From the IMG/VR virus record IMGVR_UViG_3300045988_128708: a DNA stretch of 57,430 bases; one strand, given 5' to 3'. The notes under the pieces are model-generated. The model worked only from the letters and a program-made list of their open reading frames with translations, had not been told where the DNA came from and did not search any database. This document shows, one piece after another, positions 13,474 through 53,776 of this stretch. Made by a program: the position numbers and the translations under genes. Positions within the stretch are counted from its first letter, which is position 1; each line of letters begins with the position of its first letter. Source of the stretch: a virus.

Positions 13474-13500
13474 TCTCAGAAAAATTTAGTACTTTTGCAC

Positions 13501-35001: not shown

Positions 35002-38000
35002 ATGGCACTGACAGAAGAAGAGAAAAAGGAACTGGTCCAGGATGTGGTGAACCAGATAAAGACTGACAGCCAGAGTGTGGACGAACTGGAAACGGTAAGC
35101 ACGCTGGACGGTGTGGTGAGCCTCCCGGCCATGAGAGGCGAGACGGTGGTGAGCGCTCCGCTGAAATTGCTGTCAAAACCTGCGGAGGATGCAGCTGCTG
35201 TCGCCAACTCTTCTGCTGCTGCGGCTGACGCATCGGCAAAGAAAGCTGATACGGCAGCATCAACAGCGGAGACAGCGGCCCAAACCGCCAACGATGCGGC
35301 AAGCAAGGCCACTGATGCCGCCCAAAAGACCAATGCTGCCGTGACAAAGGCAGAGAGCGTGGAAGCGGAGTACAAGGACACGGCACTGGCTGCGAGGAAC
35401 GGCGCGACAGCGCGGTTTGACGGGCTGGTGGAAGGCGTGGAGATACGACTTGTATCATGCCTCCAGATAGACGGTGTGTACTATGACACGGTGAACAAAT
35501 CCTTCTGCGGGAAGAATGGTAACATATACTGCAATAACTGGCCTGGCGCAGACATGTACATGAACGATGTGCGCACGGAAGTACTGAAAGACAAAGCGTA
35601 TGTGTGCGGTGGCGTGGTGTATGTGTGGAGCGACGAGGAAGAGAACCTGGTGGAGATAAGCGGAAGCGGCGGTGGCAACACCTATAACGTGACGGAGCAG
35701 GTTCCACTGGAGAGCGGATACTATACGCTTGAGACCGCCATAGCAGCCGTGGAGGAGAAGAAACGTGCGAAGGGACGCTGTATTACCTACGAGACGGCAC
35801 AGGGCAAATGGGAAACCAAGCAGTTCAAGGGCACGAACATCGAGAGCTGGGAGCAGGCGGCGAGTTGGGAGGACTTTGGCGGCGACGGCACGGTGAAGAG
35901 CGTGACGCTGAACGGCAAGAAGCTGGAACCAGGCGAGGACGGCAACGTTGCTATCACCATCAGCGAGACGGAGGTGGACGAGAGTCTGAACGCAAGCTCG
36001 ACGAACCCGGTGCAGAACGCTGCTGTGACGGCAAAGCTGATGGAGATAGAGGCGAGTACCGTTTTAGGCATGAATGCCGAACTGAGTGACGACGGCAGCA
36101 GCGTGCGCCTGGCACTGACCAACAAGAGCGGTGCGGAGATAGCGTCTGCGGACATTCCGGCAGGAAGCGGCGGTGGAGGCGGTGACGCTTCGACCACGAA
36201 AATCGTGCTGGATGCAGCCGTCAGCAAGACCATCATCAAGGAAGGTGACAGTGCGATGCTGACATGGACGTATGACCACCAGTACAGCAGCGGTGACGAG
36301 AAAGGCACATCCACGGGTCAGAAGGCAACAGTCAGCATTGAGATGAAGAGGGGCGCGACCGTGATGTATGCAGACACGCAGCATGATGTTAGCAAGGGAA
36401 CCTATACCCTGGATCTGACGAAATACCTGCTGCTCGGAACGACAGACATCTATGTGAGGGCTACCACAACCGACCCGACCACCGGCAAGACACAGACAAG
36501 GCAGAGCTATGTGAGCGTGAAGGCTGTGACCCTTGCACTGAGCAGCAGCTTCAACATAGCCGAGTGTGTCGCCAAGGGCGGCTACGGTGTGAGCGAGGCG
36601 GTGAACATCCCCTTTGCGGTGAGCGGAAGCGGCGACAAAACCGTGACGCTGTATCTGGACGGACACCAGTGGGACTCGCAGACGGTGAAAAGAAGCGGCA
36701 CGACGAACGGCAGTTTCTCCTTGTCGATGTCGGGAGTGAGCATCGGCCGGCACACGGTGCAGATCGTCGCCGAGATGGAGGCGAGCTCGGAGCTGACGCT
36801 GAAGAGTGAGAGCATCTACTTTGACATTCTGAAGGCCGGACAGAACGCCCCGTATATCGGCACGAAGCTGACCTTCGGTGACGGACGCATTTTTGCGGAC
36901 GACCATCTGACCCCGACTATTGAAACCGGGCAGTATGAGCAGGTGAGATTTGACTTTGTGGCGTATGACCCGACAACGACCCCAGCGACGGTGGGTGTGT
37001 GGCGAGACGGCATTCGTACGCAGACGGTGAGCGTTCCGAGGACGACGCAGGTATATACAAACCGTTTCCTGGAGCAGGGCGACGTGGCCATGGTGCTGAA
37101 GTGCGGCACTACGGAATACAAGCTGAACGTGAAGGTGACGGAGAGCGGCATTGACCTGAGCGAGGCGACTGCCGGACTTGTGCTGAAACTGACGGCAGCC
37201 GGCAGAAGCAATGCCGAGAGCGAGCCTGCTGAATGGCGTTATAACGACGTTCAAACGGTGTTTGAAGGCTTTGACTGGCAGAGCAACGGCTGGACGGGCG
37301 ACGCGCTGAAACTGACGAACGGGGCAAACATCGAGATAGGTTACAAGCCATTTGCCAATGACGCCACCACGACAGGTGCGACCTACGAGATGGAACTGAC
37401 CTGCAGTAATGTGACCGACCGCAAAGGCACGGTGGTGGACTGCATGGCTGGCAATGTCGGTTTCAGACTGACCACGCAGGAGGCGTTGATGCGGACGGGC
37501 GCAGGCTCGGAAGTGGGCACGAAGTTCGCGAGCGGTATGACACTGAAGATAGCCTTCGTGGTGCAGGAGAAGAAGGGCAACCGACTGATGATGCTGTATG
37601 TGAACGGCATCCTATGCGGCGCGAAGCAGTATGCCTCGACGGACTCGCTGCTCCATGAAGAACCCACGAACATAAAGATCACGAGCGAGAGCGCGGATGT
37701 GGAGGTGCGGAACCTGCGCGTGTACAGCCGTGCGTTGGGTGATGATGAGGAACTGTCGAACTATATGGTGGACCGTCCGACAAGCGACGAGATGGTGGTG
37801 CTGTTCGAGAAGAACCAGGTGATGGACGACGAGGGCACTGATATCGATATAGACAAACTGCGTGCGATGGGCAAGAGCGTGATGAGGATCGTGGGCGACG
37901 TGAACCTTGTGAACCAGACGAACAACAAGAAGTTTGAGGTTCCGGTGGACATCTACTTCTACTCTGCCTACGGTAAGGAGTATGACTTCATCATCTACCA

Positions 38001-41000
38001 GTGCGGACTGAGAATACAAGGCACCTCATCGACGACCTACCCGAGAAAGAACTACCGCATCTACTTCAGCCGCTCGACGAAGTACGGCACTAAGCTGTAT
38101 GTGAACGGTGTGGAGGTAGCGGACTTCAAATATTCGTTCAAACCAGGTGCAAGACCGATAGACATATTCTGTCTGAAGGCGGACTTCTCGGACTCTTCAT
38201 CTACGCATAATACGGGTGCGGTGAGAGTGGTGAACGACATCTGGAAGAGATGCGGCTGGCTGACTCCGCCACAAATGGCCTACAAGGGCAACTACGATGT
38301 GAGAATCGGCGTGGACGGTTTCCCGATAGATTTGTTCTACGACAACAACGGCACGGGTGAGAACGTGTATCTTGGCAAGTACAACTTCAACAACGAGAAG
38401 AGCGGCAGCGGCATCATCTACGGCTTTGAGGGTATCGAGGGCTTCAATGACGAGGCTGCACTGAAGGGCGGGCGCAACAAGTGTATCTGTCTGGAGTTCC
38501 TGAACAACTCGGAGACATTGTGTCTGTTCGGTACGAGCAACATGGACACGTTTGACGACGCTCTGGAGTTCCGCTTCAAGGCCGACGACACATGGGCGAC
38601 GGCGCATGAGGACGACAAGGCGGCAGTGAAGCGCCTTTGGGAGTGGATATACTCGTGCAAGGGCAACCCGACGAAATTCCTGAACGAATATGCGGAATAC
38701 TTCGGCAACGACTCGCCATTTGCATGGTATCTGATAACGGACTACTTCATGGCTGTGGACAACCGCGCGAAGAACATGATGCTCGTGACGTGGGACGGCA
38801 AGATATGGTACTTCATCCCATACGACATGGACACGGTGTTCGGTGAGCGCAACGACTCAGTTCTGAAATACGACTACACGATAACGTGGGAGACGGTGGA
38901 CGAGAGCATCGGCTCGTATGCGTTTGCAGGACACGATTCCGTGTTGTGGGAACTTGTGAGAGGCTGTCCGGACAAATTGAGGGAGGTGGCAGACAAGCTG
39001 CGAAGCACGATGTCGCTGGAGTATGTGCTGAAGGTGTTCAATGAGGAAATGATGGGCAACTGGTGTGAGCGCATCTACAACAAGGACGGCATCTACAAGT
39101 ACATCAAGCCGCTGACGGAGGGTGTGACGACGGCAGACGGCACTACGAGTTACTATGACTATCTCTATGCACTCCAGGGCAGCCGATACGCGCACCGCAC
39201 CTATACCATCCAGAACCGCTTTGCATTGCTGGACAGCCAGTATGTGTGCGGTACATACAGAAAGGACAGTTTCGCGGCCTACTTCGGCTATAAGTTCGGA
39301 AGTGACAACCGGAAGATAAGAATCACGGCGAGCGAGAGGTATTTCTTCGGGTACGGCTACACGAGCGGTACGCCGCACGAAAGCGCAGTGCTTGCGGAGG
39401 ACACGGGAAGTCAGGTGGAACTGACGCTTGACACGGACCTCATCGTGAATGACCCGCAATACATCTACGGTGCGAGCCGCATCATGGGGCTTGACTTGAC
39501 GGACGTTAGCCATGCCATACTCCAGACTCTGAACTTGAACAACTGTTCAGCCCTGAGGACGCTTGACGTGAGCTGCGGCCAGACACAGACAACGCTGAAC
39601 GCATTGCTGGTGAACGGCTGCCGAAACTTGCGTACCCTGAATATGACCGGCTTGAAGTCAGGCAGTTTCACCGGCATAGACTTGAGCAACAACACGAAGC
39701 TGGAGACACTGAAGGCAGGCAAGACAGCCCTGACCGGCGTGAACTTCGCACAGGGTGCTCCGCTGACGAGCGTAACGCTCCCGGCAACGTTGCAGACACT
39801 GGAACTGCGCTATCTGGGCAAACTGACGACCAGCGGTCTGACGCTTGAGGGCACAAGCAACATCAACAGACTTGTGGTTGACAATTGCCCGGGTGTGGAC
39901 TGGCAGACGTTGCACGCAAGGTGCGGAAACGTGAAGTATCTGCGTGTGACGGGCATCGACATGGAAGGCGACGGCAGCCTGCTGGCCTCACTGATGCAGA
40001 CGGGCGGTGTGGACGAGAATGGCGGAAACGTGGAGAGCTGCCGACTGGTGGGCACATACCGACTGACCCGTTACGTTGATGATGAAACCTATGCTGCATA
40101 CATCGAGCACTACCCTGAGTTGAACATCGAGCAGCCTGAATATACAATGCTGGAGAGCGACGAGAGCGTGGCAGACGATGCAAATCTCTCGAACTTGGAT
40201 AACGGCACGGGCTATAAGTACGGCAACGACTACAAGCCAAGCGGCCATGTGGCTGCTATACTGAAGAACCGCCACAGAGTGCTGGCGAAGGTGACAAAGA
40301 AGGCGACCACGAGGAACGTGAACATCGCGAATGTCGATACCATGGTGAACAATCTGGACGGCGAGATGACTTACATGGAGCTTGACGATACGGACAGCAC
40401 CAAGTATGCCGACGGGACCCCTGCCAAACTTGACGGCAGCGAGGGTGACCTGATGATGCACGAGCCTTTCTTCTGGAGCAAGGGTGTGAATGACTTCTTG
40501 AACAGCAAGGACTACAGTTGCTACAGCTCGAATGACAAGGATCACATGCCGGCTGTGCCGAATGTGGACGTATTGACGCTTGATGACATCAAGGCGGTGC
40601 AGGGCGGTTACACTAAAGGCAGGAAAGTGATGAGTGGCAGGGACACCATAGCAAATGCCATGAGCACGGACAGCTCTTATTCGGTGTGCGTGGTAGATGT
40701 GTCGAAGCACAAACGTGTCCGTTGGCCGAGTGTGCCAGGCACGAATCTTGTGGGCAGCGTATTTGCCGACGTGAACGGCAATGTGGTGAAGAGCATCGTA
40801 GTGCCAACGCTGGGTAACAGATTTGAGGCTGGCATGTATCTCATCAGCGATGTGCCTGAGGGAGCCAAGACTTTATACTTCTCTATATTGAACACAGCCG
40901 AGTTTGACAAGGTGGTGCTATCCAACAGCAGCAAGATAGAGGATATGGAGCCTGAATGGTTTGCCAACGATGAGCATCTGTGCGCTGTTGTGGGCAGTTC

Positions 41001-41772
41001 TGTTGTGGGCAGCAAGCTGCGTGCCTGCATAACGGGCGGCAGCACTACAGCAAGCATGACATGGACGGACTTCCATTATTACAGCGTGCAGCGAGGTATG
41101 CAGCAGATTGACGCTCTGATGCACTTCCGCATCGCGAACCTTGCATACGCGAAGTATGGCAGGAGAAACATGCAGGAGCAGTGTGGCGCCGGCTCGCATA
41201 CGAATATGCGCACGACTGGCGGCACGATGTCAAGAGGCATGCAGGACACTATAGGCTATGAGGGCGCAAAGGCAATCAACCCGAATGTGACAAACAGTCT
41301 GGTGGACGAGAACAGAGTGCACCAATATGCCTGGTATGTGGACAAGGACGAGTATGGTGCTGCAAAGGTGACGCAGGTGAACAATATCTGCTGCCTGGGC
41401 TATGAGGACATCTACGGACACAAGTATGACATGATGGACGGTGTGGACTTGCCGAACACGAGCGGCAATGAGGGCAAGTGGCGCATTTGGATGCCTGACG
41501 GCAGCACGATCATGATAAAGGGTACGACAACCAGCGGTAACTGGATAACGGCAGTGGCTCATGGAAGGCTGATGGCGGTAGTGCCAGTAGGCTCGATGAA
41601 TGGCTCGTCGAGCACATACTATACAGACGTGTACTGGATAAGCACAGCCACAGGCCGTGTGGTCTATCGCGGGTGTCGCTATGCGTTCGCGTGTGGCGGT
41701 GTCTCGGGTGCGAATGCGAGTAACGATGCCTCGTATGCGTTTGCGTATGTCGGCTCGCGCCTGGAAATCTAA
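35002..41772 (+). CDS. Giant multidomain tail fibre, DGR target protein (Ala-rich N-terminus, LamG-like, CotH-like, LRR, C-terminal CLec-like variable region)
   Basis: 2256 aa. LamG-type ending VEVRNLRVYSRALGDDEL (~37160-37770). CotH-like motifs CGLRIQGTSSTTYPRKNYRIYF, FCLKADFSDSSSTHNTGA, WYFIPYDMDTVFG (~37945-39200). LRR (~39480-40000). C-terminus ...GRVVYRGCRYAFACGGVSGANASNDASYAFAYVGSRLEI. Confidence 0.8.
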   Translation: MALTEEEKKELVQDVVNQIKTDSQSVDELETVSTLDGVVSLPAMRGETVVSAPLKLLSKPAEDAAAVANSSAAAADASAKKADTAASTAETAAQTANDAASKATDAAQKTNAAVTKAESVEAEYKDTALAARNGATARFDGLVEGVEIRLVSCLQIDGVYYDTVNKSFCGKNGNIYCNNWPGADMYMNDVRTEVLKDKAYVCGGVVYVWSDEEENLVEISGSGGGNTYNVTEQVPLESGYYTLETAIAAVEEKKRAKGRCITYETAQGKWETKQFKGTNIESWEQAASWEDFGGDGTVKSVTLNGKKLEPGEDGNVAITISETEVDESLNASSTNPVQNAAVTAKLMEIEASTVLGMNAELSDDGSSVRLALTNKSGAEIASADIPAGSGGGGGDASTTKIVLDAAVSKTIIKEGDSAMLTWTYDHQYSSGDEKGTSTGQKATVSIEMKRGATVMYADTQHDVSKGTYTLDLTKYLLLGTTDIYVRATTTDPTTGKTQTRQSYVSVKAVTLALSSSFNIAECVAKGGYGVSEAVNIPFAVSGSGDKTVTLYLDGHQWDSQTVKRSGTTNGSFSLSMSGVSIGRHTVQIVAEMEASSELTLKSESIYFDILKAGQNAPYIGTKLTFGDGRIFADDHLTPTIETGQYEQVRFDFVAYDPTTTPATVGVWRDGIRTQTVSVPRTTQVYTNRFLEQGDVAMVLKCGTTEYKLNVKVTESGIDLSEATAGLVLKLTAAGRSNAESEPAEWRYNDVQTVFEGFDWQSNGWTGDALKLTNGANIEIGYKPFANDATTTGATYEMELTCSNVTDRKGTVVDCMAGNVGFRLTTQEALMRTGAGSEVGTKFASGMTLKIAFVVQEKKGNRLMMLYVNGILCGAKQYASTDSLLHEEPTNIKITSESADVEVRNLRVYSRALGDDEELSNYMVDRPTSDEMVVLFEKNQVMDDEGTDIDIDKLRAMGKSVMRIVGDVNLVNQTNNKKFEVPVDIYFYSAYGKEYDFIIYQCGLRIQGTSSTTYPRKNYRIYFSRSTKYGTKLYVNGVEVADFKYSFKPGARPIDIFCLKADFSDSSSTHNTGAVRVVNDIWKRCGWLTPPQMAYKGNYDVRIGVDGFPIDLFYDNNGTGENVYLGKYNFNNEKSGSGIIYGFEGIEGFNDEAALKGGRNKCICLEFLNNSETLCLFGTSNMDTFDDALEFRFKADDTWATAHEDDKAAVKRLWEWIYSCKGNPTKFLNEYAEYFGNDSPFAWYLITDYFMAVDNRAKNMMLVTWDGKIWYFIPYDMDTVFGERNDSVLKYDYTITWETVDESIGSYAFAGHDSVLWELVRGCPDKLREVADKLRSTMSLEYVLKVFNEEMMGNWCERIYNKDGIYKYIKPLTEGVTTADGTTSYYDYLYALQGSRYAHRTYTIQNRFALLDSQYVCGTYRKDSFAAYFGYKFGSDNRKIRITASERYFFGYGYTSGTPHESAVLAEDTGSQVELTLDTDLIVNDPQYIYGASRIMGLDLTDVSHAILQTLNLNNCSALRTLDVSCGQTQTTLNALLVNGCRNLRTLNMTGLKSGSFTGIDLSNNTKLETLKAGKTALTGVNFAQGAPLTSVTLPATLQTLELRYLGKLTTSGLTLEGTSNINRLVVDNCPGVDWQTLHARCGNVKYLRVTGIDMEGDGSLLASLMQTGGVDENGGNVESCRLVGTYRLTRYVDDETYAAYIEHYPELNIEQPEYTMLESDESVADDANLSNLDNGTGYKYGNDYKPSGHVAAILKNRHRVLAKVTKKATTRNVNIANVDTMVNNLDGEMTYMELDDTDSTKYADGTPAKLDGSEGDLMMHEPFFWSKGVNDFLNSKDYSCYSSNDKDHMPAVPNVDVLTLDDIKAVQGGYTKGRKVMSGRDTIANAMSTDSSYSVCVVDVSKHKRVRWPSVPGTNLVGSVFADVNGNVVKSIVVPTLGNRFEAGMYLISDVPEGAKTLYFSILNTAEFDKVVLSNSSKIEDMEPEWFANDEHLCAVVGSSVVGSKLRACITGGSTTASMTWTDFHYYSVQRGMQQIDALMHFRIANLAYAKYGRRNMQEQCGAGSHTNMRTTGGTMSRGMQDTIGYEGAKAINPNVTNSLVDENRVHQYAWYVDKDEYGAAKVTQVNNICCLGYEDIYGHKYDMMDGVDLPNTSGNEGKWRIWMPDGSTIMIKGTTTSGNWITAVAHGRLMAVVPVGSMNGSSSTYYTDVYWISTATGRVVYRGCRYAFACGGVSGANASNDASYAFAYVGSRLEI
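41652..41772 (+). repeat. DGR variable repeat (VR) at the 3' end of the fibre gene
   Basis: Identical to the reverse complement of 15659..15779. The 37 codons at 41653-41763 contain only 10 A, none at a third position. Remaining A-codons are tat, aat, aac, agt and gat. GC-rich end ggctcgcgcctgg is IMH-like. Confidence 0.75.
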
Positions 41773-41968
41773 CTAATCGGCGTACAACGATGGGGACGTG
41801 TCCCTAATGTGGAGCCGAGGGAAACGAGCCACAGCAAAAGCACCAATATAAAGGTGGAAAGCTGAAACATCAAGTGTCGGGCAATAGAGTTTGGTAGGTC
41901 GGTAACGATTCGAAGAAGTTTGGCCCGGGGAAAGGAAGGCCCTTATCTTCCATAAAACAAAAAAGACA

Positions 41969-43273
41969 ATGCTCAGAGAAGGCTATATCATGCAAGAGAT
42001 AACGTCCTACGGCAATATTTCGGAGGCGTTTGACCGTGTACTGCGTGGGAAAAAGCGAAAGAGATGCCGTCAAGGACGCTATCTGCTCGCACACCGCGAG
42101 GAGGTGATTGCAGAACAGACTGCAAAACTTGCCGACGGGTCTTTCCGCCTCGGTGGCTACCACGAGCGCACCATCTGTGAATACGGCAAAGTCCGTCACC
42201 TGCAGATTATCTCCATGTACGACCGCATCGCAGTGTATGCAGTGATGAACGTGGTGGACCAACATCTGCACAAGCGTTTCATCAGGACGACTGGAGCAAG
42301 TATAAAGAAGCGCGGCACACATGATCTCCGCAAATGCATGCAATTGGACATGGAACGTGACCCCGAAGGCACACGCTACTGCTACGAGTTCGACATCAAG
42401 CATTTCTATGACAATACTAAGCCTAAGTTTGTCATGTGGTGCTACCGCAGAGTATTCAAAGACAAGACCCTGCTGTCACTCCTGGATCATTTCCTTCATC
42501 TACTACCAGAGGGCATCAGCTTCGGGTTGCGAAGCTCACAGGCTTCTGGCAACCTCTTGTTGTCCGTGTTCCTCGACCATTATCTGAAGGACAAATATGG
42601 CATCCGCCATTTCTACCGTTATTGTGATGACGGCAGAGTGCTCTGTGGCAACAAGCAAGAAAATTGGCTGGCACACGGCATTGTACATGAGCAAGTCGAA
42701 AAAATTGACCTTGAAATCAAGAAAAACGAAAGGGTGTTCCCTTCAGCGCAAGGAATCGACTTCTTGGGGTATGTGACATATAACGGTTCATACTCACTAC
42801 TGCGCAAGCGCGTCAAGAAGGAAAATGCAAGGAAACTACACAAAGTCAAGTCAAGAAAGAGACGGCGGGAACTGATTGCGTCATTCTACGGAATAGCCAA
42901 GCACGCTTGCTGCCGAAATTTGTTTTATAAATTAACAGGCAAAAAAATGAAATCATTTAAAGATTTGAATGTCGCTTACAAGCCGGAAGACGGCAAGAAG
43001 CGATTTGCGGGTGCGGTGGTAAGCATCCGTGAGTTGGTGAACCTGCCCATCGTGGTAAAAGACTTCGAGGTCGGGGTCAAAACCAGCCAGGGCGAAGACC
43101 GCTGTGTCGTGTCCATCGAGCAGAACGGCGAGCCGAAGAAGTTCTTCACCAACAGTGAGGAGATGAAAAACATTCTCCAGCAAGTGAGTGAAATGCCAGA
43201 CGGCTTCCCATTCGAGACCACCATCAAGGCGGAAACCTTCGGCAAAGGTAGAACAAAGTACATTTTCACATGA
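41969..43273 (+). CDS. DGR-type reverse transcriptase with C-terminal extension (mirror of 14158..15462)
   Basis: Exact copy. Here it lies 196 nt downstream of the fibre stop codon, on the same strand. Confidence 0.85.
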   Translation: MLREGYIMQEITSYGNISEAFDRVLRGKKRKRCRQGRYLLAHREEVIAEQTAKLADGSFRLGGYHERTICEYGKVRHLQIISMYDRIAVYAVMNVVDQHLHKRFIRTTGASIKKRGTHDLRKCMQLDMERDPEGTRYCYEFDIKHFYDNTKPKFVMWCYRRVFKDKTLLSLLDHFLHLLPEGISFGLRSSQASGNLLLSVFLDHYLKDKYGIRHFYRYCDDGRVLCGNKQENWLAHGIVHEQVEKIDLEIKKNERVFPSAQGIDFLGYVTYNGSYSLLRKRVKKENARKLHKVKSRKRRRELIASFYGIAKHACCRNLFYKLTGKKMKSFKDLNVAYKPEDGKKRFAGAVVSIRELVNLPIVVKDFEVGVKTSQGEDRCVVSIEQNGEPKKFFTNSEEMKNILQQVSEMPDGFPFETTIKAETFGKGRTKYIFT

Positions 43274-43755
43274 TGAACAGAGTAAACGGAGCACAAGGGG
43301 TAAAGCTGCTTGAATGCACCAACCCCGTCAAAGGAAAATGGCGTGTCCGCTGGGACGTGCATAACAACGAGGATGGATCTGCCGACTATATGGAGGCTGA
43401 GTTCAACGGAAAGCCATCTGAGGATACCATCAAGACCATGGTGTCGGAATGGTTCAACGACCGCACGAACGAGACCATACTTTCTGGCTTCGTGTGGAAC
43501 GGCATGAGCGTGTGGCTCTCTAACGAGAACCAGTTCAACTACAAGGTGGCATACGACTTGGCTGTGCAGTCTGACGGCAAGACATTGCCAGTCACGTTCA
43601 AGTTCGGAACAGACGATGTGCCATGCTATCACACGTTCAGCACCATCGAAGAACTGGCGGACTTCTATACCAAAGCCATGCAGCATATCCAGGACACACT
43701 GGCTGACGGATGGAAGAGCAAGGATAATTTCAATTTGGAGTTATACCGAGACTAA
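43270..43755 (+). CDS. RT-coupled 161-aa DUF4376-like protein (mirror of 13676..14161)
   Basis: Exact copy. ATGATG overlap at 43270-43275. Confidence 0.5.
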   Translation: MMNRVNGAQGVKLLECTNPVKGKWRVRWDVHNNEDGSADYMEAEFNGKPSEDTIKTMVSEWFNDRTNETILSGFVWNGMSVWLSNENQFNYKVAYDLAVQSDGKTLPVTFKFGTDDVPCYHTFSTIEELADFYTKAMQHIQDTLADGWKSKDNFNLELYRD

Positions 43756-43809
43756 GAACAATCCCTTCGGGGGAGGGTAATAAAAAAGCCCCCGGCCTGT
43801 TAAAATAGT

Positions 43810-43930
43810 CGTCTCACTTACTTTTTTAACACACGTTACCATCAATAGGCACGACCGGGGGCGTAAACCCTCGCTCGCCTATTGATGGCTTTTTTTATGT
43901 GTGTGCGCGATGCGCTATGTAAGTGAGACG
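43810..43930 (+). ncRNA. Structured intergenic element downstream of the RT operon
   Basis: Outer stem cgtctcacttac (43810-43821) pairs with gtaagtgagacg (43919-43930). The inner hairpin is the terminator at 43839-43896. A gcgc gat gcgc mini-hairpin lies at ~43905-43915. Confidence 0.4.
43839..43896 (+). terminator. Strong rho-independent terminator of the RT operon
   Basis: ccatcaataggc (43839-43850), 26-nt loop, gcctattgatgg (43877-43888), then c plus ttttttt (43890-43896). Confidence 0.7.
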
Positions 43931-43957
43931 GTGCAAAAGTACTAAATTTTTCTGAGA

Positions 43958-44200
43958 ATGAAACTAATAGAGATACTGAATTTGAACAGGGAATTGCTAA
44001 TTTACCTCCAAAAGGCAGGAATCAGGCTGGACGATGTGCAATATATCGACCTATTTAAGGAATACCGCACACTTTCCGCACAAGGCGAGAAGGTGTCATA
44101 TATCGTGGCAAGGCTCGCCACAGAATATGCCATAAGCGAGCGCAAGGTGTACAGCCTTATACGGCGTTTCAAAACTGACTGCAATCTACTTGCAGTGTAA
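43958..44200 (+). CDS. Mor/C-like activator (mirror of 13231..13473)
   Basis: Exact copy. Confidence 0.5.
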   Translation: MKLIEILNLNRELLIYLQKAGIRLDDVQYIDLFKEYRTLSAQGEKVSYIVARLATEYAISERKVYSLIRRFKTDCNLLAV

Positions 44201-44271
44201 CATTTGCGTATGGTCATTGTCGAGGGGACACGCGTTGTTACCTTTGCACCGTTTTCAAATTCAAAACGGTT

Positions 44272-44910
44272 ATGAACAAATACCATCAAATTTTACAGAA
44301 GGTACTTACTCTGGGCAAGTGCCAGACTAACAAGAAGGGAAGCATACGTTACCTGCTCAACGAGCCGTTGGTGCTTTCCCCTGCTGACCTGCTCGACATA
44401 TTCGAGGGGCACGGCCTCGCACGAAAGAAGTTAAAGAACGAGCTGCAGCTCTTCATGCAAGGTGAACGCAATGTGGAGAAGTATCGCGAGGTGGGCATCA
44501 ACTGGTGGGACTACTGCGGTGCCATTCTCGTAAACTCCTACCCTACCTACTTTGAGAAGCTGCCGCCACTCATCGCCAAAATCAACCGAGAGAAGCGCAA
44601 CAGCAAGAACTATGTGCTGTTCCTCGGCTCCACCGATGCGGAGACAAACCAGGCACCGTGTCTGTCACTCGTTCAGTTCCAGATTGAGAACGACGAATTA
44701 GTGGTGTCGGCTTACCAGCGCAGCTCGGACGCGAACCTCGGCTTGCCGGCCGACATCTACCACCTCTACCTCATGACCCGGCAGATTGACCTCCCTTTGA
44801 AGTCCATCACGCTGAACCTTGCGAATGTGCATATCTACGAGAACAACATCGAACACACACGACAGTTGCTCAACGGAAACGAGAACGTGAAATTTGAACT
44901 AAACGTATAA
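44272..44910 (+). CDS. Thymidylate synthase-family enzyme (mirror of 12521..13159)
   Basis: Exact copy. Confidence 0.7.
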   Translation: MNKYHQILQKVLTLGKCQTNKKGSIRYLLNEPLVLSPADLLDIFEGHGLARKKLKNELQLFMQGERNVEKYREVGINWWDYCGAILVNSYPTYFEKLPPLIAKINREKRNSKNYVLFLGSTDAETNQAPCLSLVQFQIENDELVVSAYQRSSDANLGLPADIYHLYLMTRQIDLPLKSITLNLANVHIYENNIEHTRQLLNGNENVKFELNV

Positions 44911-44913
44911 GAC

Positions 44914-45753
44914 ATGAGAAGACAATATTTATCGGCACCGCTCCCTTTCGTGGGGCAGAAGCGCATGTTCGCGCGTGAGTTTATCAAGGTTCTAAAACAA
45001 TATCCAGAGGACACGGTATTCGTGGATTTGTTCGGCGGTTCGGGTCTGCTGTCGCACATCACCAAGTGCCAGAAGCCAAATGCCACAGTCATATACAACG
45101 ACTTCGACGGCTACCGCAACCGCCTACAGCACATCCCGCAGACCAACCACCTTTTGGCTGACCTGCGCAAAATGGTGGAAACGGAAGGCATACCCAAGCA
45201 CAGCTGCATCCGTGGTGAACTGCGCGACCGCATATTCGCTCGTTTGGAGCAAGAGGAACGAGAGGTCGGGTACATTGACTTCATCACCATTTCTTCCGGA
45301 CTGATGTTCTCCATGAAATACAAATTGAGCATCCCCGAAATGAAGAAGGAGGCTCTATACAACAATCTCCGCAAGTCAGACTATCCTACTTGTGAGGACT
45401 ATCTTGAAGGTATCACAGTAGTATCATGCGACTACAAAGAGGTGTTCGCCCGATACAAAGACATGCCGAATGTTGTGTACCTTGTTGATCCGCCCTATCT
45501 ATCCACCGACGTTGGCACATATAATATGTACTGGAAACTTTCCGACTACCTCGATGTGCTGACCATTCTTGCCGGACATCACTTTATATATTTCACTTCC
45601 AACAAGTCATCCATTATTGAGCTTTGTGAATGGATGGGCAAGAACCCGACCGTGGGCAACCCATTCAAGAACTGCCACAAGGTGGAGTTCAACGCCACAG
45701 TAAACTACAGCTCGCACTACACAGACATGATGTTGTTCACCGATGCCGCCTAA
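44914..45753 (+). CDS. Dam-like D12 methyltransferase family protein (mirror of 11678..12517)
   Basis: Exact copy. Confidence 0.75.
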   Translation: MRRQYLSAPLPFVGQKRMFAREFIKVLKQYPEDTVFVDLFGGSGLLSHITKCQKPNATVIYNDFDGYRNRLQHIPQTNHLLADLRKMVETEGIPKHSCIRGELRDRIFARLEQEEREVGYIDFITISSGLMFSMKYKLSIPEMKKEALYNNLRKSDYPTCEDYLEGITVVSCDYKEVFARYKDMPNVVYLVDPPYLSTDVGTYNMYWKLSDYLDVLTILAGHHFIYFTSNKSSIIELCEWMGKNPTVGNPFKNCHKVEFNATVNYSSHYTDMMLFTDAA

Positions 45754-45838
45754 CGGCGTTATAATTCAATTCTAACGGCATTAAAAAGCCCCGGCGGTAA
45801 ATTATCCGTCGGGGCTAAATCGTTGCGACATGGGCGGT

Positions 45839-46240
45839 TTATCGCAATAGGTAACGCACCGCATAACAGTCGATGCTTTCAAGTATCTCTTCGTGGTTGT
45901 GGTTGGTGTTCGTCTCAACAAGCGCCATGCCGTTAAAATCATCACCACTCAATCCGTCAAGGGCTGTATGCACCTGGTGGCAAAGGTCGAAAGCTGCATC
46001 ATGGCCACCGTCAGCCCAGTCTGTCACAAGGTGAATAGTAACAAGTCCCTTGCCACGCTGACTGCCACCTTGAAATGGTGACCACTCTATCTTTCCAAAC
46101 TCCACAAAGACGGCTGGACGCGCCCATCCTTCTTCCTGCTCTACAAACTCCACATTGTGGTTCCACAAATCAATGTGCTGCACTTCAGGCACATCGCTCG
46201 CCAGTTTTGCTTTAATGGCGTTGAATAATTCCTTTCTCAT
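45839..46240 (-). CDS. Putative head-tail connector protein (mirror of 11191..11592)
   Basis: Exact copy. Confidence 0.4.
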   Translation of the reverse strand: MRKELFNAIKAKLASDVPEVQHIDLWNHNVEFVEQEEGWARPAVFVEFGKIEWSPFQGGSQRGKGLVTIHLVTDWADGGHDAAFDLCHQVHTALDGLSGDDFNGMALVETNTNHNHEEILESIDCYAVRYLLR

Positions 46241-46794
46241 TTCAATTTATATTCGTGTTCAAAATACTCTGCAAGGTTCTCCTCGATGATGTCCTTGACC
46301 GCTTGCTCCACTTCTGGCGATGCTCCAAGAAATCTGCGGCGCGGTATCTTGATGCTCTTTCCTTCTTTCATCAGAGCCATGTGCTTCCAGAACTCCGCCT
46401 CGGTGCTCAGTTGTACGGTGCGCTTGTCGTTGCGTCTCTCACCATTCTTCTTGCGTCCGAATGAGCCTGTCGCCTCATGGTACTTGTACCAGAAGAATCG
46501 CTTCATCCTCGCCGTCACCTTTATCTCACCTCCATCGTTGTGTATGGCTGCATAAGGCAGTGTCGAGCAGAACGTGATACTGCTCTCTGTGGTTCGGCTG
46601 CTGATGCTCTGCCGCAACTTGCCGGTGTCTATCAGTATGGAACCGCCAGGACGTGTGGGGCTGCTTCTGCGCTGCCATGCCTCGTTGAAGAATGCCTGCC
46701 GTTCAAAGTTGCGGTCAAACTCATCACTCAACTCCACCCTAACGTCGTTTAGGATATTGCGGATAATTTTCTGTATGTCCTGGTTCATCGTCAA
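46237..46794 (-). CDS. Virion morphogenesis protein (mirror of 10637..11194)
   Basis: Exact copy. Confidence 0.55.
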   Translation of the reverse strand: MTMNQDIQKIIRNILNDVRVELSDEFDRNFERQAFFNEAWQRRSSPTRPGGSILIDTGKLRQSISSRTTESSITFCSTLPYAAIHNDGGEIKVTARMKRFFWYKYHEATGSFGRKKNGERRNDKRTVQLSTEAEFWKHMALMKEGKSIKIPRRRFLGASPEVEQAVKDIIEENLAEYFEHEYKLK

Positions 46795-47017
46795 AGTCGA
46801 ATTTTAGAAACGTCTGTGCCTCTTGTGGCACTTCGTTCTTAGGGTCACAAGAGGCATTAAGGAGGTTGTAGAAGGTACGCTCACATATACCATAAACAGG
46901 ATACACGTACCTTCGCCATATCTCGCGGTTGCTGATTCCGCTTTTGGCATGTTGGTCGTATATCCTATTTATGTCTGTGACACGTTTCTGATAGCTTGCT
47001 CCTCGCCTCTTGCTCAT
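46739..47017 (-). CDS. Putative DNA-binding protein (mirror of 10414..10692)
   Basis: Exact copy. Confidence 0.45.
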   Translation of the reverse strand: MSKRRGASYQKRVTDINRIYDQHAKSGISNREIWRRYVYPVYGICERTFYNLLNASCDPKNEVPQEAQTFLKFDFDDEPGHTENYPQYPKRR

Positions 47018-47025
47018 AAAATGTT

Positions 47026-47214
47026 TTAGTGTCTGTCTCTTGGTTTATAGGGACGGATGTCATAGCTCATCTTTGCGCTGACGGTTACTCTGCCCGTTCC
47101 CTCACATTGGTCACATGTGCTTTCTTTGCCAGTCTCCTTGTCGTGGAGACGACCTGTGCCGTAACATTTACGGCACAAGGCCACTTTCGGTTTCTTCTCT
47201 ACTTCCAGTATCAT
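47026..47214 (-). CDS. DnaJ-type zinc-finger protein (mirror of 10217..10405)
   Basis: Exact copy. Confidence 0.55.
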   Translation of the reverse strand: MILEVEKKPKVALCRKCYGTGRLHDKETGKESTCDQCEGTGRVTVSAKMSYDIRPYKPRDRH

Positions 47215-47226
47215 GTCTCTTCGCTT

Positions 47227-47895
47227 TTAGGATTCTGTCATTCCGAGCGGTATTGACTTCCACATTCCGTTCTCGTTCTTTATCTCAGCCCTGATGAACT
47301 GCTTGCTCACCTCCGGCTGGTAGCTTTCCTCGATGATGCGCACGCCTTCAAGGAAACGCTCATCGCCGGTGTCCTGCGCCACCTTGCGGAGTTGCACGAT
47401 GCGGCTTGCCTTCAGCGTGCCCTTGGCATCGCGTGCCAGCAGACGAAACACCATGTTCACTAACGCCTGTGTCTTGTCGTCATTGGCAAGGCCGGCGATG
47501 TACTCCTTCACGATGGCGATGCCGTCCTCTACGGTGTCACGGTAGCCGTCGGTCACATACACACCGAGCGTAATGCGCTTGTTGCCCTCGGAGTTGGTGA
47601 ACGTGTGGCTGCGCTGGTCGTCCTTGACCTTGGTCTTGAACAGGTCAGACTTCATCTCCAGTATGGTCTTGAAGTTGTCCATCACCTTTTGCTTGCTGTC
47701 CTTGATTTGCTCGCTGATGCCGAGAAGCACGGGGATGGAATGCTCTATTTCCTCGTCCACGAGCTGTTTGTACTCTTCACGCTCGGCCTTGGCTTTCGCC
47801 TCTGCCTCTTTCTTGGCTTTCGCCTTTTGGAATGCCCGGTACTCGGCCATCTCCTCCGCCGTCATTTCAACGGTCTGCTTGTTGTCTTCTTTCAT
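47227..47895 (-). CDS. DUF3164-like protein (mirror of 9536..10204)
   Basis: Exact copy. Confidence 0.5.
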   Translation of the reverse strand: MKEDNKQTVEMTAEEMAEYRAFQKAKAKKEAEAKAKAEREEYKQLVDEEIEHSIPVLLGISEQIKDSKQKVMDNFKTILEMKSDLFKTKVKDDQRSHTFTNSEGNKRITLGVYVTDGYRDTVEDGIAIVKEYIAGLANDDKTQALVNMVFRLLARDAKGTLKASRIVQLRKVAQDTGDERFLEGVRIIEESYQPEVSKQFIRAEIKNENGMWKSIPLGMTES

Positions 47896-47934
47896 TGTAG
47901 TAAACTTTTTGTTGATTATTATTTTGATTGCTTA

Positions 47935-48093
47935 TCACTCGTCTTCTTCTGGTTCCGGCCAGTCACCTTCTTCCAGTTCCTTGTCTATCTCGTATTCAAT
48001 ACACTCAAGAAATTCGATGTACTGGTCACCTTGGAGTTCTCTGTATGCGATGCCGTGAATGTATTCCATCACACGCTTCACTTTCTCATTCAT
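47935..48093 (-). CDS. Small acidic protein, 52 aa (mirror of 9338..9496)
   Basis: Exact copy. Confidence 0.45.
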   Translation of the reverse strand: MNEKVKRVMEYIHGIAYRELQGDQYIEFLECIEYEIDKELEEGDWPEPEEDE

Positions 48094-48587
48094 GCCTCAC
48101 CTCCATTTCCAATTGGTACCATCATGTATTCCACTTGTGGCTGTGCTGGAGGTGTCGGTTCTTTCTTAGGTTTCAGACCTCCCTTGCGCTGGATGGAGCG
48201 GAGCTTCACCGACAGCTGCTCCAATTCCTCATTACTTAGTTGAGAGAACACCTTGCCGGCAATACGCTGATCCTGGCAAAATGCGTTGATGCGTGTCCAG
48301 TCTGTTGTATCGATGCCGAGCTTCTGCATCAACCTCAAGCACTGGCTTCGATGCTTGCGCTGTACGTCCTTGGCGGTGCGTATCAATTTGGCTGTAACAC
48401 CTTCGAGCTTGTCGCACATCAAGTCGTACTCCTTACGGGTCATTTCCCTAAGCGAAGTGGTACGTCCATTGGTGAATTGACTCACCACTCCTTCCTTGAA
48501 CTCATCGCCCAGCTCCTTGGTGGCAAACTTGTAGCTCTTTTTGAGTATGCCATAGAAGCGTGCGAAATTGGTTACTTCCTGTGCCAT
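48090..48587 (-). CDS. Hypothetical / GemA-like protein (mirror of 8844..9341)
   Basis: Exact copy. Confidence 0.4.
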   Translation of the reverse strand: MAQEVTNFARFYGILKKSYKFATKELGDEFKEGVVSQFTNGRTTSLREMTRKEYDLMCDKLEGVTAKLIRTAKDVQRKHRSQCLRLMQKLGIDTTDWTRINAFCQDQRIAGKVFSQLSNEELEQLSVKLRSIQRKGGLKPKKEPTPPAQPQVEYMMVPIGNGGEA

Positions 48588-48589
48588 AT

Positions 48590-49042
48590 CTATTTCAATT
48601 TTGACAACCTTATTCTTTCACTTAACACCTTCAAATTACATTCAGGACAACACTCCCCCTCATCTTTCAATGGATGAGGATTGTTTCCATAGCCGATTTG
48701 GGGCTTACCGCAAAGGCAGCAGGTGTATTCACGAACATTGTTCTCATGACCTTCAAACATCACTTTAATGCCACACGAACTGGCAACATCCAGTTCCAGT
48801 TTTGCTCCCTTGCTCAATTCCCAGCCTTGCAGCATATAGATGCAATCACACTTCAAAAGCTGGGCAATGTCCACTCTCATGTGCTCCATCCAGTGAGCAT
48901 CCTGCGAAACGCCATTTTCAAATGGGTTCACCGGCTCGTAACCTTTTATGGAGAGATAGCGTGCCGCATGGTCAAAGGTTGCCATACGCTCTTTAAGGTC
49001 GTAGTGGGCTATCGCTCCGCTGATATAAACTTTCTTCTTCAT
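48590..49042 (-). CDS. DUF4406-like plus zinc ribbon protein (mirror of 8389..8841)
   Basis: Exact copy. Confidence 0.5.
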   Translation of the reverse strand: MKKKVYISGAIAHYDLKERMATFDHAARYLSIKGYEPVNPFENGVSQDAHWMEHMRVDIAQLLKCDCIYMLQGWELSKGAKLELDVASSCGIKVMFEGHENNVREYTCCLCGKPQIGYGNNPHPLKDEGECCPECNLKVLSERIRLSKLK

Positions 49043-49053
49043 CTCAGTTATGT

Positions 49054-49695
49054 TTAGTTGTTAGACTTGTCATTGTAAACCTCCACGGCTTTCTCCGCCC
49101 AGATGGTGTAGTATTCACTTACGTTGCCTGAATAGCGTCCTTGACAGTATGCACGGAAGCCTTGCGTTCTCACCTTCACGCCGGCAGCGTATTTCAGTCT
49201 GATGGCAGGTTTGCCGATGGGTTTGCCTTTATCCTCTTGGCTGACGAAAATGAAGGTCTTGCGCTTGAAGCGGTCTATCAGTGCCCTGGTCAGCGAATAT
49301 TCCCACCCTGCTTCGTATGCGTACTGGTAACTGTCCACAATGATAAACTTGGCACTCTTGGGCTTCGCCAGACGTTCTTCCAATGCCTTGATGTCGCCAT
49401 CGGTAATGAGGCGGAACGAGCCTTGAACGTCAGTCATCTTGAATTGGGCAAGCCGTCGTTGCATCGACAGACCAACGCCCTCTTCCAAGGACACATACAA
49501 CACGCTGCCTATACCGCAGAGCATCTTGGCAAACTGCATAACGAAGGAACTCTTACCACTGGCACTGGGACCACTGATGAACCATGTGTCGCCCTCTTCT
49601 GGCTGACCGAACACGTCTTTCCATTGTCCTTCAAATGGTAGTGCCTTGCACTTGATATTAGCCACATCCTTGGGACTATATGCTCGCTTTGCCAT
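49054..49695 (-). CDS. P-loop NTPase (mirror of 7736..8377)
   Basis: Exact copy. Confidence 0.6.
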   Translation of the reverse strand: MAKRAYSPKDVANIKCKALPFEGQWKDVFGQPEEGDTWFISGPSASGKSSFVMQFAKMLCGIGSVLYVSLEEGVGLSMQRRLAQFKMTDVQGSFRLITDGDIKALEERLAKPKSAKFIIVDSYQYAYEAGWEYSLTRALIDRFKRKTFIFVSQEDKGKPIGKPAIRLKYAAGVKVRTQGFRAYCQGRYSGNVSEYYTIWAEKAVEVYNDKSNN

Positions 49696-49696
49696 A

Positions 49697-49930
49697 TCAC
49701 TTCTCTGTTTCGATAAGTTCTGATACAACAGCGTCCGCTATCTTGACTGCATATTTGGCAATGAGTTCGGCTGTCATTTCTTCACGATCATGGTGAAGGA
49801 CTGGAGCCACAAACAATGCAGCCTTGGCCAATTCATAGCGACGTTGCTCCCAGTCCACCTCGTTATTTCGTTGTCGGCGGTTTATTTGTATAACCGCGTC
49901 CATATATTGCATTTCCATCTTTGTCATCAT
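49697..49930 (-). CDS. Hypothetical early protein (mirror of 7501..7734)
   Basis: Exact copy. Confidence 0.5.
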   Translation of the reverse strand: MMTKMEMQYMDAVIQINRRQRNNEVDWEQRRYELAKAALFVAPVLHHDREEMTAELIAKYAVKIADAVVSELIETEK

Positions 49931-50805
49931 GCCTGCACTCTTTTTAGTTTTTCTATTTCCGTGTAAACTCGTCTCAGTCCACCACCCGACTTGCGCACCA
50001 GAGTAGCAATATCCGCACCTTCTGGGGCGTTCACCTTTGCCACCACGCTCGCCTGGTCTTTCAGGAACTTCTCACGCTCCTTGCAGTCGTCGGGCGTTAC
50101 CTTCGAGTAGCGGTCACCATATCGACTGAGCATCTCGGTATAGCCCACTTTCTTGCACTCAATGGAGCGATTGATTTTGGCTTTCAGCCCGTCCGCACCC
50201 ATCATATACCAGGCACAGCATCTTTCTGTAGCGTTCCACAAGGCTTTGAGTTCCAGAAATGCCTCATACTGCAAGTCGCCAGCCTCGTCCAAAATGATGA
50301 GTGGTGTGTCGATTGAGCGCAAGTAATAAACCAAATCCTCGTACACGTCGCTGTATCTTCCGTTGCTGCCCACACCGAACTCAGTGGCTATCTTGCGCAC
50401 CAGCTTCAGTTTGGTCTTCACTTGGGAGCAATCTACATAGATGGCATTGCGGTGGCACTGCACATAATAGCGTGCCGTGAATGTCTTGCCGATGTTGGGT
50501 ATATCACATAGTATCGCACTCAGTCCGCTCTGTTGGCTGAACTCCAGCTGCTTGGTGATATATTCGAAGGTGGCGGTGCGTGCTGGCTTCCATTCAATGC
50601 CTCCTCTGAGGTTCACACCCAGTCTTCGGGCGATGGTTATCCAGTTGGCTTCGCTCAGTGCCTTGTCGGTCTGTCCATTCTTGATGGCGCTATATACCGA
50701 GGTGCTGATGCCCAATGAAGCAGCGTGCTTGGCATCGCTCGGATAGTTCGTGCGGTTGGTGGCTATAGCCTCCAATATCCGCTTCTTGTTCTCATTCGTT
50801 ATCAT
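49927..50805 (-). CDS. Mu B-like AAA+ ATPase (mirror of 6626..7504)
   Basis: Exact copy. Confidence 0.7.
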   Translation of the reverse strand: MITNENKKRILEAIATNRTNYPSDAKHAASLGISTSVYSAIKNGQTDKALSEANWITIARRLGVNLRGGIEWKPARTATFEYITKQLEFSQQSGLSAILCDIPNIGKTFTARYYVQCHRNAIYVDCSQVKTKLKLVRKIATEFGVGSNGRYSDVYEDLVYYLRSIDTPLIILDEAGDLQYEAFLELKALWNATERCCAWYMMGADGLKAKINRSIECKKVGYTEMLSRYGDRYSKVTPDDCKEREKFLKDQASVVAKVNAPEGADIATLVRKSGGGLRRVYTEIEKLKRVQA

Positions 50806-50840
50806 GTCTCACGTTATTTTAATTGTATTCTAATATCATT

Positions 50841-52847: not shown

Positions 52848-52859
52848 ACTTACTCCTCC

Positions 52860-53222: not shown

Positions 53223-53250
53223 ATCTCACTTGTTTTTACGTTATACTTAT

Positions 53251-53411
53251 TGTGGAGTGTGGGGAGTCGAACCCCATGGCTGTCCTACGCTCTTCGCTTT
53301 CGCTTATTCCAACATTCCGGCCACTGCAACCGTGCCACCCCTGCGGTCTTTCCCGCCGTCATCCGAGGCTGGCCCTGCCGACTATCCAGTACATCACCCT
53401 GGGCTTCCGTG
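53251..53411 (-). ncRNA. tRNA/tmRNA-3'-like element (mirror of 4020..4180)
   Basis: Exact copy. Confidence 0.35.
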
Positions 53412-53422
53412 TTATCCTGCAA

Positions 53423-53668: not shown

Positions 53669-53776
53669 TTTTCGTACCTTTGACCGCGCGTTAAATAATT
53701 AACACGCTGCAAAGATAGTGGTTTCTCACGAATTACAAAAGAAAAATCGGGATTTATTTCGATTAAATTTAGAATT

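Follow-up and report, generated by a model that had tools for sequence, protein, structure and literature searches.

Evidence for a split-layout diversity-generating retroelement in a Hankyphage-related Bacteroidales prophage assembled as a palindromic contig

The diversity-generating retroelement (DGR) described here lies in IMG/VR virus record IMGVR_UViG_3300045988_128708, a stretch of 57,430 nt that was analyzed as a whole and that we call the window. The described systems against which it is best read are the DGRs of Hankyphage p00 (BK010646; PMC6199706) and Bordetella phage BPP-1. In p00 all parts stand in direct orientation, in the order tail fibre with its variable repeat (VR; 38049-38164), small open reading frame (ORF), template repeat (TR; 38419-38534), reverse transcriptase (RT), DUF4376 gene, helix-turn-helix (HTH) gene, ThyA, methylase and the phage's right end. 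DGR activity has been measured for the Hankyphage family (PMC12135933). Homing in BPP-1 is independent of orientation and works on inverted and in-trans targets (Guo et al. 2011; PMC3240598), and Wu et al. (2018; PMC5758913) list many prophage DGRs whose targets are not adjacent but lie within 50 kb. Several structured RNA motifs adjoin RT genes, and one of them, RT-10, lies between TR and brt in BPP-1 (Weinberg 2017; PMC5737381); RT-10 alone was tied to a DGR in that study, and the motif RT-3 was published without an assigned function.

The first-pass annotation of the window had placed a DGR at 41652-43273, where a fibre gene ending in a VR runs directly into an RT gene as an apparent compact cassette, and had called a remote, inverted TR, if authentic, unusual for a phage. 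We conclude that the DGR is real and that it is a relative of the Hankyphage DGR whose TR-RT module is relocated and inverted. Our reading, to which we assign a probability of about 0.85, is that the window derives from a Mu-like, Hankyphage-related Bacteroidales prophage with a functional DGR in split layout, and that the cassette at 41652-43273 is a fold-back artefact. Because remote, inverted and in-trans targets are already documented in the studies of Wu et al. and Guo et al., this layout is a variant and introduces no new principle, and "unusual" overstated the case.

Layout of the element in the window and in related contigs

The argument turns on six features of the window:
2-2203, minus strand: host SusC/TonB-dependent receptor gene, running off the contig end (Pfam Plug 2.8e-20, CarbopepD_reg_2, TonB beta-barrel)
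14158-15462, minus strand: DGR reverse transcriptase, 434 aa, authentic copy; best solved match BPP-1 bRT (8ub7)
15667-15779, minus strand: template repeat (TR), 113 nt; same slot in 52 other contigs
35002-41764, plus strand: tail-fibre gene, the DGR target (PHROG 14959; 68-71% nucleotide identity to the p00 fibre gene)
41652-41764, plus strand: variable repeat (VR), at the fibre 3' end, with adenine-position variation across contigs
41765-57430, plus strand: fold-back artefact, an exact reverse-complement duplicate of 1-15666

A whole-window repeat scan followed by a base-by-base check defined the borders of two arms. Positions 1-15779 and 41652-57430 are exact reverse complements over 15,779 nt (100% identity), and similarity ends past 15780; the scan itself had reported 1-15783 and 41648-57430, a span of 15,783 nt that takes in a single mismatch, at 15780. 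Each arm carries its own copy of the RT ORF (14158-15462(-) and 41969-43273(+)), and the outermost 2.2 kb of both arms are one and the same host SusC-like gene, inverted. A contig bearing an identical host gene inverted at either end is not plausible as a genome. Beyond the VR, the right arm holds the 3' flank of the TR, an RT-3 RNA (41775-41927), the RT (41969-43273), a duplicate of the DUF4376 gene (43270-43755), the HTH, ThyA and D12 methylase genes, early genes, MuB/MuA-like genes, the phage left end and host DNA. The left end proper is at ~2218, where the terminal sequence resembles the p00 terminus, and the prophage extends from ~2218 to 41764 plus ~270 nt that are absent from the window. 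The inner junctions do not fit a genuine long terminal inverted repeat or palindromic replicon: the left one is seen in 52 contigs, and the right one is contradicted by a contig from the same strain and by ten host-flanked fibre ends.

The arrangement of the left arm recurs in many contigs. In the TR slot the order is Mu-F, a 77-aa gene, ~60 nt, TR, spacer and RT, with the TR 204 nt upstream of the RT start and an in-frame stop nine codons upstream. An identical RT protein is listed for 81 blocks of the contig collection. At all ten loci inspected it is preceded by portal, Mu-F, the 77-aa gene and a ~377-nt spacer, and followed by the 161-aa, 80-aa, ThyA and D12 methylase genes and then by inverted early genes up to a MuA-like gene. 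Further TR slots came from a scan with the Mu-F-side flank pattern (38 IMG/VR contigs) and from a strain-specific look-up (7). Since 10/10 RT loci and 52 TR slots show the left-arm order, we take the left arm to be authentic.

The same geometry is found in a contig that is not palindromic. In ERZ27263635 k119_41155 (68,974 nt, same strain) the TR occupies 31581-31693(+) and the VR 5596-5708(-), with 25,872 nt between them; in the window, 25,872 nt likewise separate the TR (ending at 15779) from the VR (starting at 41652), on opposite strands. This contig continues into host DNA past the fibre end and, at the other side, runs on for 21.6 kb past the place that corresponds to window position 1. 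Both repeats are also present on six IMG/VR contigs, on opposite strands every time. The first-pass proposal that TR and VR lie 25.9 kb apart and inverted, provided that the left arm is authentic, is thus borne out by k119_41155 and agrees with the 52 other TR-slot contigs. The second repeat copy that it placed at 15659-15779(-), 196 nt upstream of the RT, is present and identical over ~121 nt, but it is the inner tip of the 15,779-nt inverted duplication, and the true repeat measures only 113 nt. No imperfect copy of the repeat occurs elsewhere in the window (best ungapped match 50/112).

We then compared the end of the fibre gene across contigs. In the window the fibre ORF encodes 2256 aa and ends ...VGSRLEI* at 41772, and its last 8 nt (AAATCTAA, encoding EI*) are 3' flank of the TR. 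Independent contigs (L027, L080, L081 and L082) read ...VGSRL-AFRGKLVRAQSVAAYKALSEAA*, giving a fibre of 2276 aa. The fibre is authentic to 41764, where the fold-back cuts it short; its true product has 2276 aa. Among the IMG/VR and GenBank sequences with a complete fibre end, 12 of 13 have the post-repeat sequence ...CTGG/CCTTCCGCGGCAAACTCGTGAGG...GCTGCGTAA, translated LAFRGKLVRAQSVAAYKALSEAA*, and among fibre-tip protein clusters a LAFRGKLVRAQSVAAYKALSEAA-type tail occurs in 95/120 and an RLEI end in 2/120. The 3' end of the fibre gene is a VR, as first described, but the terminal VGSRL belongs to the truncated ORF: the VR ends 22 codons before the true stop. In k119_41155 the 2276-aa fibre is followed by a host ROK regulator, a DUF4434 gene and an MFS transporter. 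In ten contigs the 22-codon tail and stop are followed by ~208 common nt (...GTTTCGTTTTGCGGATTATA) and then by ten different host sequences, which is the right-end signature of a transposable phage. Because independent contigs run from the fibre tail into host DNA, the fibre is the last phage gene. Three other sequences (L028, L029 and MT835789) break within or just past the VR, and VRs vary between contigs, both of which are indirect signs of hypervariability within populations; a Megablast of the region against phage records returned only MT835789, for the fibre part alone.

The apparent fibre-RT cassette at 41652-43273 exists because TR and VR are identical inverted repeats that let the assembler fold back. 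Judged from the sequences at hand, the right arm would be the left arm re-read by an assembler passing from the VR into the inverted, identical TR: having left the fibre via the VR, it would come out at the TR and traverse 15.7 kb a second time, in reverse. The VR-side exit is a ~270-nt stub that opens into heterogeneous host DNA, and the TR-side exit is a long, well-covered path, the one that an assembler coming out of the repeat would naturally follow. In another assembly, metaSPAdes NODE_507 (L028), which comes from the fibre, ends exactly 55 nt into the VR, and NODE_5036 (L093), which comes from Mu-F, ends exactly 55 nt into the TR; further contigs break off 33 and 30 nt into the repeat. 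Contig stops of this kind are what a repeat node in a de Bruijn graph produces. If the right arm arose in this way, the VR of the sample would join ...GCCTTCCGCGGCAAACTCG rather than the TR flank, and the window's VR bases, which are identical to the TR, may not be those of the sample past the assembler's switch point. The DGR is real; the fibre-to-RT adjacency at these coordinates is an artefact, the RT there being a duplicate of 14158-15462(-).

We considered the converse, a real compact layout, as in p00, with the left arm as the artefact. Fibre-VR, small ORF, TR and RT are indeed adjacent and in direct orientation in p00 and in contigs L013 and L021, and the RT of L013 is 99.5% identical to that of the window. 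However, p00-like genomes hold two repeats ~370 nt apart and the window only one; in the same-strain non-palindromic contig the TR-RT adjoins Mu-F and the fibre gives way at once to host DNA; the Mu-F-to-TR junction is present in 52 contigs; and past the methylase the right arm enters inverted early genes, which is the left-arm order backwards. This alternative is very improbable. A mixture of p00-like and relocated-module strains was also rejected as the source of the palindrome, the window being without the ~370-nt segment of VR flank, small ORF and TR flank. Because L013 keeps the adjacent layout with a 99.5% identical RT (VR 9628-9719, TR 9996-10108, RT 10313-11614), the module appears to have moved and inverted recently. 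The part that moved starts ~40 nt upstream of the TR and includes everything as far as the methylase (window 11678-15779). In another lineage (IMG/VR contigs L087 and L091; fibre ~73%, RT ~73-75% identical) a single, nearly unmutated TR-like repeat joins fibre to RT; this is either an assembler collapse of direct VR and TR or a real deletion that would disable the DGR.

Alternatively, the right-arm junction could be biological, if recombination between TR and VR inverted the 25.9-kb head-tail segment in a subpopulation and the assembler merged the isomers. The repeats are identical over at least 55-113 nt, enough for RecA-type recombination, and the junction of fibre, core and TR flank is shared by the window, L090 and possibly L014. 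L090 has the order of the window's right arm and a hybrid core that changes from VR-like to TR-identical within the shared stretch; a core of this kind is equally expected from k-mer path switching. Inversion would yield both junctions, and the reciprocal one (Mu-F side, core, 3' flank of the VR) was found in 0/52 TR slots, and two gapped-pattern scans of IMG/VR did not find it either. The inverted isomer would also cut 22 conserved residues off the fibre, and the duplicated terminal host DNA requires an assembler error in any case. We therefore regard inversion as quite unlikely and retain the fold-back. Programmed inversion of the fibre in the manner of the Mu G segment was rejected as well: neither an invertase nor a set of alternative C-termini for the fibre was seen, and the TR/VR of the DGR accounts for the repeat.

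Reverse transcriptase, template and adenine-restricted variation

To place the RT, the 434-aa protein was compared with solved structures and profile collections. The best phmmer match in the PDB was 8ub7 (2.1e-14, 56.7 bits), whose chain is 100% identical to BPP-1 brt by tblastn; group II-type RTs scored 32 bits or less. The ORF that had been called bRT-like at 41969-43273(+), from an xGxxxSQ motif and a YCDD box, indeed aligned with bRT over residues 6-320, FGLRSSQ falling opposite IGSLTSQ and YCDD opposite YMDD. By these pairwise and profile matches the protein carries both marks of the DGR clade, an (I/L/V)GxxxSQ motif 4 and a YxDD box. With the RTs annotated in Hankyphage p00 and in Bacteroides thetaiotaomicron hankyphages it shares 67-71% identity (tblastn), and it also matches Pfam RVT_1 and PHROG 1423. 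The RT is ~105 aa longer than bRT, and the extra C-terminal domain (residues ~327-434; window 14158-14480(-)) matches phrog_19665 (2.9e-20), a PHROG without known function.

That there is no DGR at all, with an RT of another class (group II intron, retron or Abi/DRT defence) beside a repeat left by duplication, is scarcely credible. The best NCBIfam match is a group II RT/maturase model, PADLOC returned generic DRT/UG defence-RT models, and there is no Avd. However, those matches lie far below their cut-offs or are weak (62.9 against 300 bits for NCBIfam, at most 65 bits for PADLOC), bRT is the best structural relative, TR/VR differences are restricted to adenines on many contigs, and activity has been measured for the homologous Hankyphage DGR (PMC12135933). 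The first-pass annotation had named grouping with retron, group II or Abi RTs as the result that would speak against it; with bRT at 56.7 bits, the group II-type RTs at 32 bits or less and the defence-RT matches weak, the comparison went the other way. The bRT match, the 67-71% identity to Hankyphage RTs, the RT-3 RNA and the adenine-restricted differences together identify a DGR-type RT.

The canonical TR of the lineage is 113 nt long and contains 26 adenines, of which 25 occupy codon positions 1-2 when read in the frame of the fibre. It is identical in 44/52 slots, and four more slots carry 1-3 non-adenine variants. Across contigs the VR varies at 24/26 TR-adenine positions against 31/87 other positions (Fisher 2e-7). 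Where both repeats are on one contig, the mismatches that fall at TR adenines number 5/5 (the window's strain), 15/17 and 8/10. Outside the window, on independent contigs, TR and VR thus differ at the adenines of the TR, and an invariant non-coding TR stands beside the RT, the exception being four lineages, the window's among them, with adenine-only TR rewrites. The 3' ends of the repeats share GTCGGCTCGCGCCTGG, which is followed by CCTTCCGCGGCAA... on the VR side and by AAATCTAACTAATC... on the TR side; this GC-rich common end with divergent flanks corresponds, at the level of sequence, to an asymmetry of the IMH/IMH* type (IMH, initiation of mutagenic homing). By homology to BPP-1 and the active Hankyphage DGR, the TR-spacer RNA would be reverse-transcribed with random nucleotides opposite template adenines, and the cDNA would replace the VR in trans, whatever its orientation. 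The predicted outcome is recoding of Asn, Tyr, Asp and Ser codons in the receptor-binding tip.

In some contigs VR and TR part company. Two contigs (L035/L012 and L067/L019; IMG/VR 3300045988_185346 and _094923) carry VRs that differ from their own canonical TR at non-adenine positions, 19 in one case and 9 in the truncated pair, and that resemble the VR of B. thetaiotaomicron hankyphages. Their fibre tips may be mosaics that mismatch their own TR, with DGR homing possibly impaired.

The TR of the window's strain has 11 adenines against 26 in the canonical TR, and 15 of the 16 differences between them fall at adenines (Fisher 6e-11). The identical sequence occupies the TR slot of non-palindromic k119_41155 (113/113), whose Mu-F-side part (L073/L092) has 0 mismatches to the window over 20,567 nt, and it is also present in metaSPAdes NODE_5036 (55/55) and in Logan ERR260245_69326 (30/30). 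Support for this slot thus comes from four assemblies (the window, MEGAHIT k119, metaSPAdes and Logan), with at least three datasets besides that of the window. Over 19,528 nt the fibre side of k119_41155 (L027) differs from the window at only five positions, each an A-to-G change in the VR and each at an adenine of the rewritten TR (P ~9e-6 for base specificity and 6e-12 for location). The L027 VR also retains all 16 substitutions relative to the canonical TR; because homing from a canonical TR would erase them, the 11-adenine sequence appears to be the working template. These data argue well for a rewritten TR that is authentic in this strain and that still seems to template VR changes.

The adenine-depleted TR could in principle be a chimera of assembly, with VR reads in the TR slot of a strain that truly carries the canonical 26-adenine TR. 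Flanking k-mers are common to TR and VR, and three other contigs (L007, L064 and L074) also have VR-like cores in the TR slot, L064 ending there. Yet the identical sequence stands on the Mu-F-side flank in four assemblies made by different assemblers, and in k119_41155 the TR-slot core differs from the contig's own VR at five sites, so that it is no copy of the assembled VR. A canonical TR would share just 23 nt with the VR, which would make contig stops 55 nt deep unexpected, and the L027 VR keeps the 16 substitutions that homing from such a TR would erase. A chimera is unlikely on this evidence, and the narrower idea of a VR copy misplaced by the assembler was abandoned, the same slot being filled alike in three other assemblies and the sister VR differing only at adenines. 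An authentic, rewritten TR remains our preferred interpretation.

Adenine-only changes fill the TR slots of the three other contigs too, 11/11 in L074, 10/10 in L064 and 9/9 in L007 (slot ~9683-9795). With one assembly each, these are either independent rewrites or chimeras of assembly, and recurrent adenine-specific rewriting is well supported for the window strain, the other three cases resting on single assemblies. We lean towards the view that the TR is not always protected: its slot would have been overwritten with adenine-mutagenized, VR-type sequence at least four times among 52 contigs, pointing to leaky directionality and a ratchet that erodes capacity. Rewriting could proceed by retrohoming into the TR or by VR-to-TR gene conversion, for example through double inversion between the inverted repeats. 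If the ratchet reading is true, a DGR wears down its own capacity for diversification.

Several observations weigh against the reading of the window as a functional, split-layout DGR with a folded-back right arm. Within the window TR and VR show zero differences, so the pattern of adenine mismatches is invisible there, and the five VR changes in L027 are uniformly A-to-G. DGRs usually give A-to-N. Exact-pattern scans for the strain's core gave 0 matches in IMG/VR and in JGI metagenome contigs, and a scan of the same kind for the Mu-F-side TR flank gave 0 in GTDB representative genomes. The fold-back is deduced from other contigs and not from the reads of the source sample, and the junction of fibre and TR flank recurs in five IMG/VR contigs, among them L090, whose RT is 99.8% identical. 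No basic four-helix bundle of the Avd type was recognized, and no other candidate adjoins the RT. Finally, modelling and searches gave no evidence that the VR domain has a C-type-lectin fold: an AF2 model of the fibre tip (63-sequence alignment) reached pLDDT 55, and below 35 over the VR, Foldseek against the PDB gave a meaningless best E of ~1, and a profile-versus-PDB search and Pfam had no match. The statement of a C-type lectin domain in the p00 paper (Benler 2018; PMC6199706) is the sole support for this fold here.

Spacer RNA and companion genes

Three further features make up the rest of the module:
15504-15656, minus strand: spacer RNA, Rfam RF03068 RT-3 RNA (cmscan 142.8 bits, gathering score 40.5)
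13676-14161, minus strand: 161-aa protein of the DUF4376 fold, its start overlapping the RT stop
11678-13473, minus strand: 80-aa HTH protein, thymidylate synthase and D12 N6-adenine methyltransferase (collinear with p00 38411-42591, ~68% nucleotide identity)

The RT-3 match (E=1e-34) covers the full model, 1-148, lies directly 3' of the TR and is nearly invariant across contigs. A structured spacer RNA 3' of the TR is what a DGR has, and by analogy the RT-3 RNA is presumed to be the priming or scaffold part of the DGR RNA.

The 161-aa gene carries the label "Avd" in Hankyphage record PV107405. The protein had no Pfam Avd match and no sequence match in the PDB. Its AF2 model (pLDDT 93.9) has a mixed alpha/beta fold for which Foldseek returned no PDB match; it matches DUF4376 phage proteins in BFVD, and the fold also occurs in Bacillus, Pseudomonas, crAss-like and cyanophage proteins. 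Judged by this model, the gene labelled "Avd" encodes a protein that is not Avd-like and bears no resemblance to bAvd. We propose the DUF4376 protein as a candidate accessory factor with putative co-transcription with the RT. The HTH, ThyA and D12 methylase genes come after the RT in p00 too, and ThyA and the D12 methyltransferase (11678-13159(-)) always accompany the TR-RT module, here and in p00. It is curious to find an adenine methylase next to a mutator that is specific for adenines. The 77-aa gene (15839-16072(-)), which lies between Mu-F and the TR, is conserved in every relocated-module contig; its product is hydrophobic, apparently a membrane protein, and without a family match.

Two hairpins were seen along the element. 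A near-perfect one of 40 nt, TGCCTCTTGTG...CACAAGAGGCA, lies between early genes at 10575-10614 (and 46817-46856) and is probably a terminator; because the arms are duplicated, the repeat finder had labelled it a "direct repeat". A strong, GC-rich hairpin, GAACGGGGTTCGGA-TGGTG-TCCGGACTCCGTTC, absent from the window, stands ~105 nt past the true VR end, just beyond the fibre stop, in L027 (19596-19810) and in L081; a terminator is one possible role for it, and another is that it corresponds to the target hairpin of BPP-1.

Implications and comparison with described systems

For annotation, these results mean that the compact cassette, the 15.8-kb "terminal inverted repeat" and the ...LEI* end of the fibre are products of assembly, and that DGR TR/VR pairs can trigger fold-backs or collapses in metagenome contigs. 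An abundant Hankyphage-related lineage keeps its TR/RT module 26 kb from the target and inverted, and close relatives keep it adjacent; the two layouts amount to a natural experiment on retrohoming that acts in trans and regardless of orientation. RT-3, an orphan motif in Rfam, is now tied to a DGR spacer RNA, the "Avd" label in Hankyphage records is called into question, and the window's strain offers a tractable natural example in which a rewritten, adenine-depleted template appears to be still in use.

The likeness to Hankyphage p00 is extensive. Both are Mu-like transposable Bacteroidales prophages of ~40-43 kb that share MuA/MuB, portal, Mu-F, fibre and DGR module. TR, spacer, RT, DUF4376, HTH, ThyA and D12 methylase are collinear at ~68% nucleotide identity, with 67-71% amino acid identity for the RT; the VR is near the C-terminus of a ~2250-aa fibre ending ...VGSRLAFRG..., and TR adenines lie in AAC/AAT codons. 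In p00, however, the module follows directly on the fibre at the right end and shares its strand, and 370 nt separate VR from TR, whereas in the window it is flanked by the early genes and Mu-F, lies on the strand opposite to the fibre and is 25.9 kb from the VR, and the fibre comes last. The TR of the window's strain is adenine-depleted, and most of the remaining genome is not alignable as DNA. As its authors use the name, Hankyphage implies intergenomic similarity above 70%, together with the same gene order; here blastn aligns ~12 of ~40 kb at 67-72% identity and the module is elsewhere and reoriented, which places the phage outside Hankyphage proper.

With the BPP-1 DGR (mtd-VR, avd, TR, brt) the element shares the RT family and its catalytic motifs, a TR just upstream of the RT, a structured RNA between TR and RT (RT-10 in BPP-1, RT-3 in the window), adenine-specific mutagenesis at the 3' end of a receptor-binding protein gene, and a GC-rich repeat 3' end with divergent flanks. 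It differs in that no Avd-like four-helix-bundle protein was detected in the window, in the ~105-aa C-terminal domain of the RT, and in a target that is remote and inverted. A target tens of kb from TR and RT within the same prophage is reportedly common among the prophage DGRs of PMC5758913; what sets the window apart from these is that it represents a specific, abundant gut-phage lineage whose near relatives with the adjacent layout allow direct comparison. As with the published Rfam RT-3 motif, the RNA of the window is a full-length, high-scoring match beside an RT gene, and here it lies exactly between a verified TR and a DGR RT.

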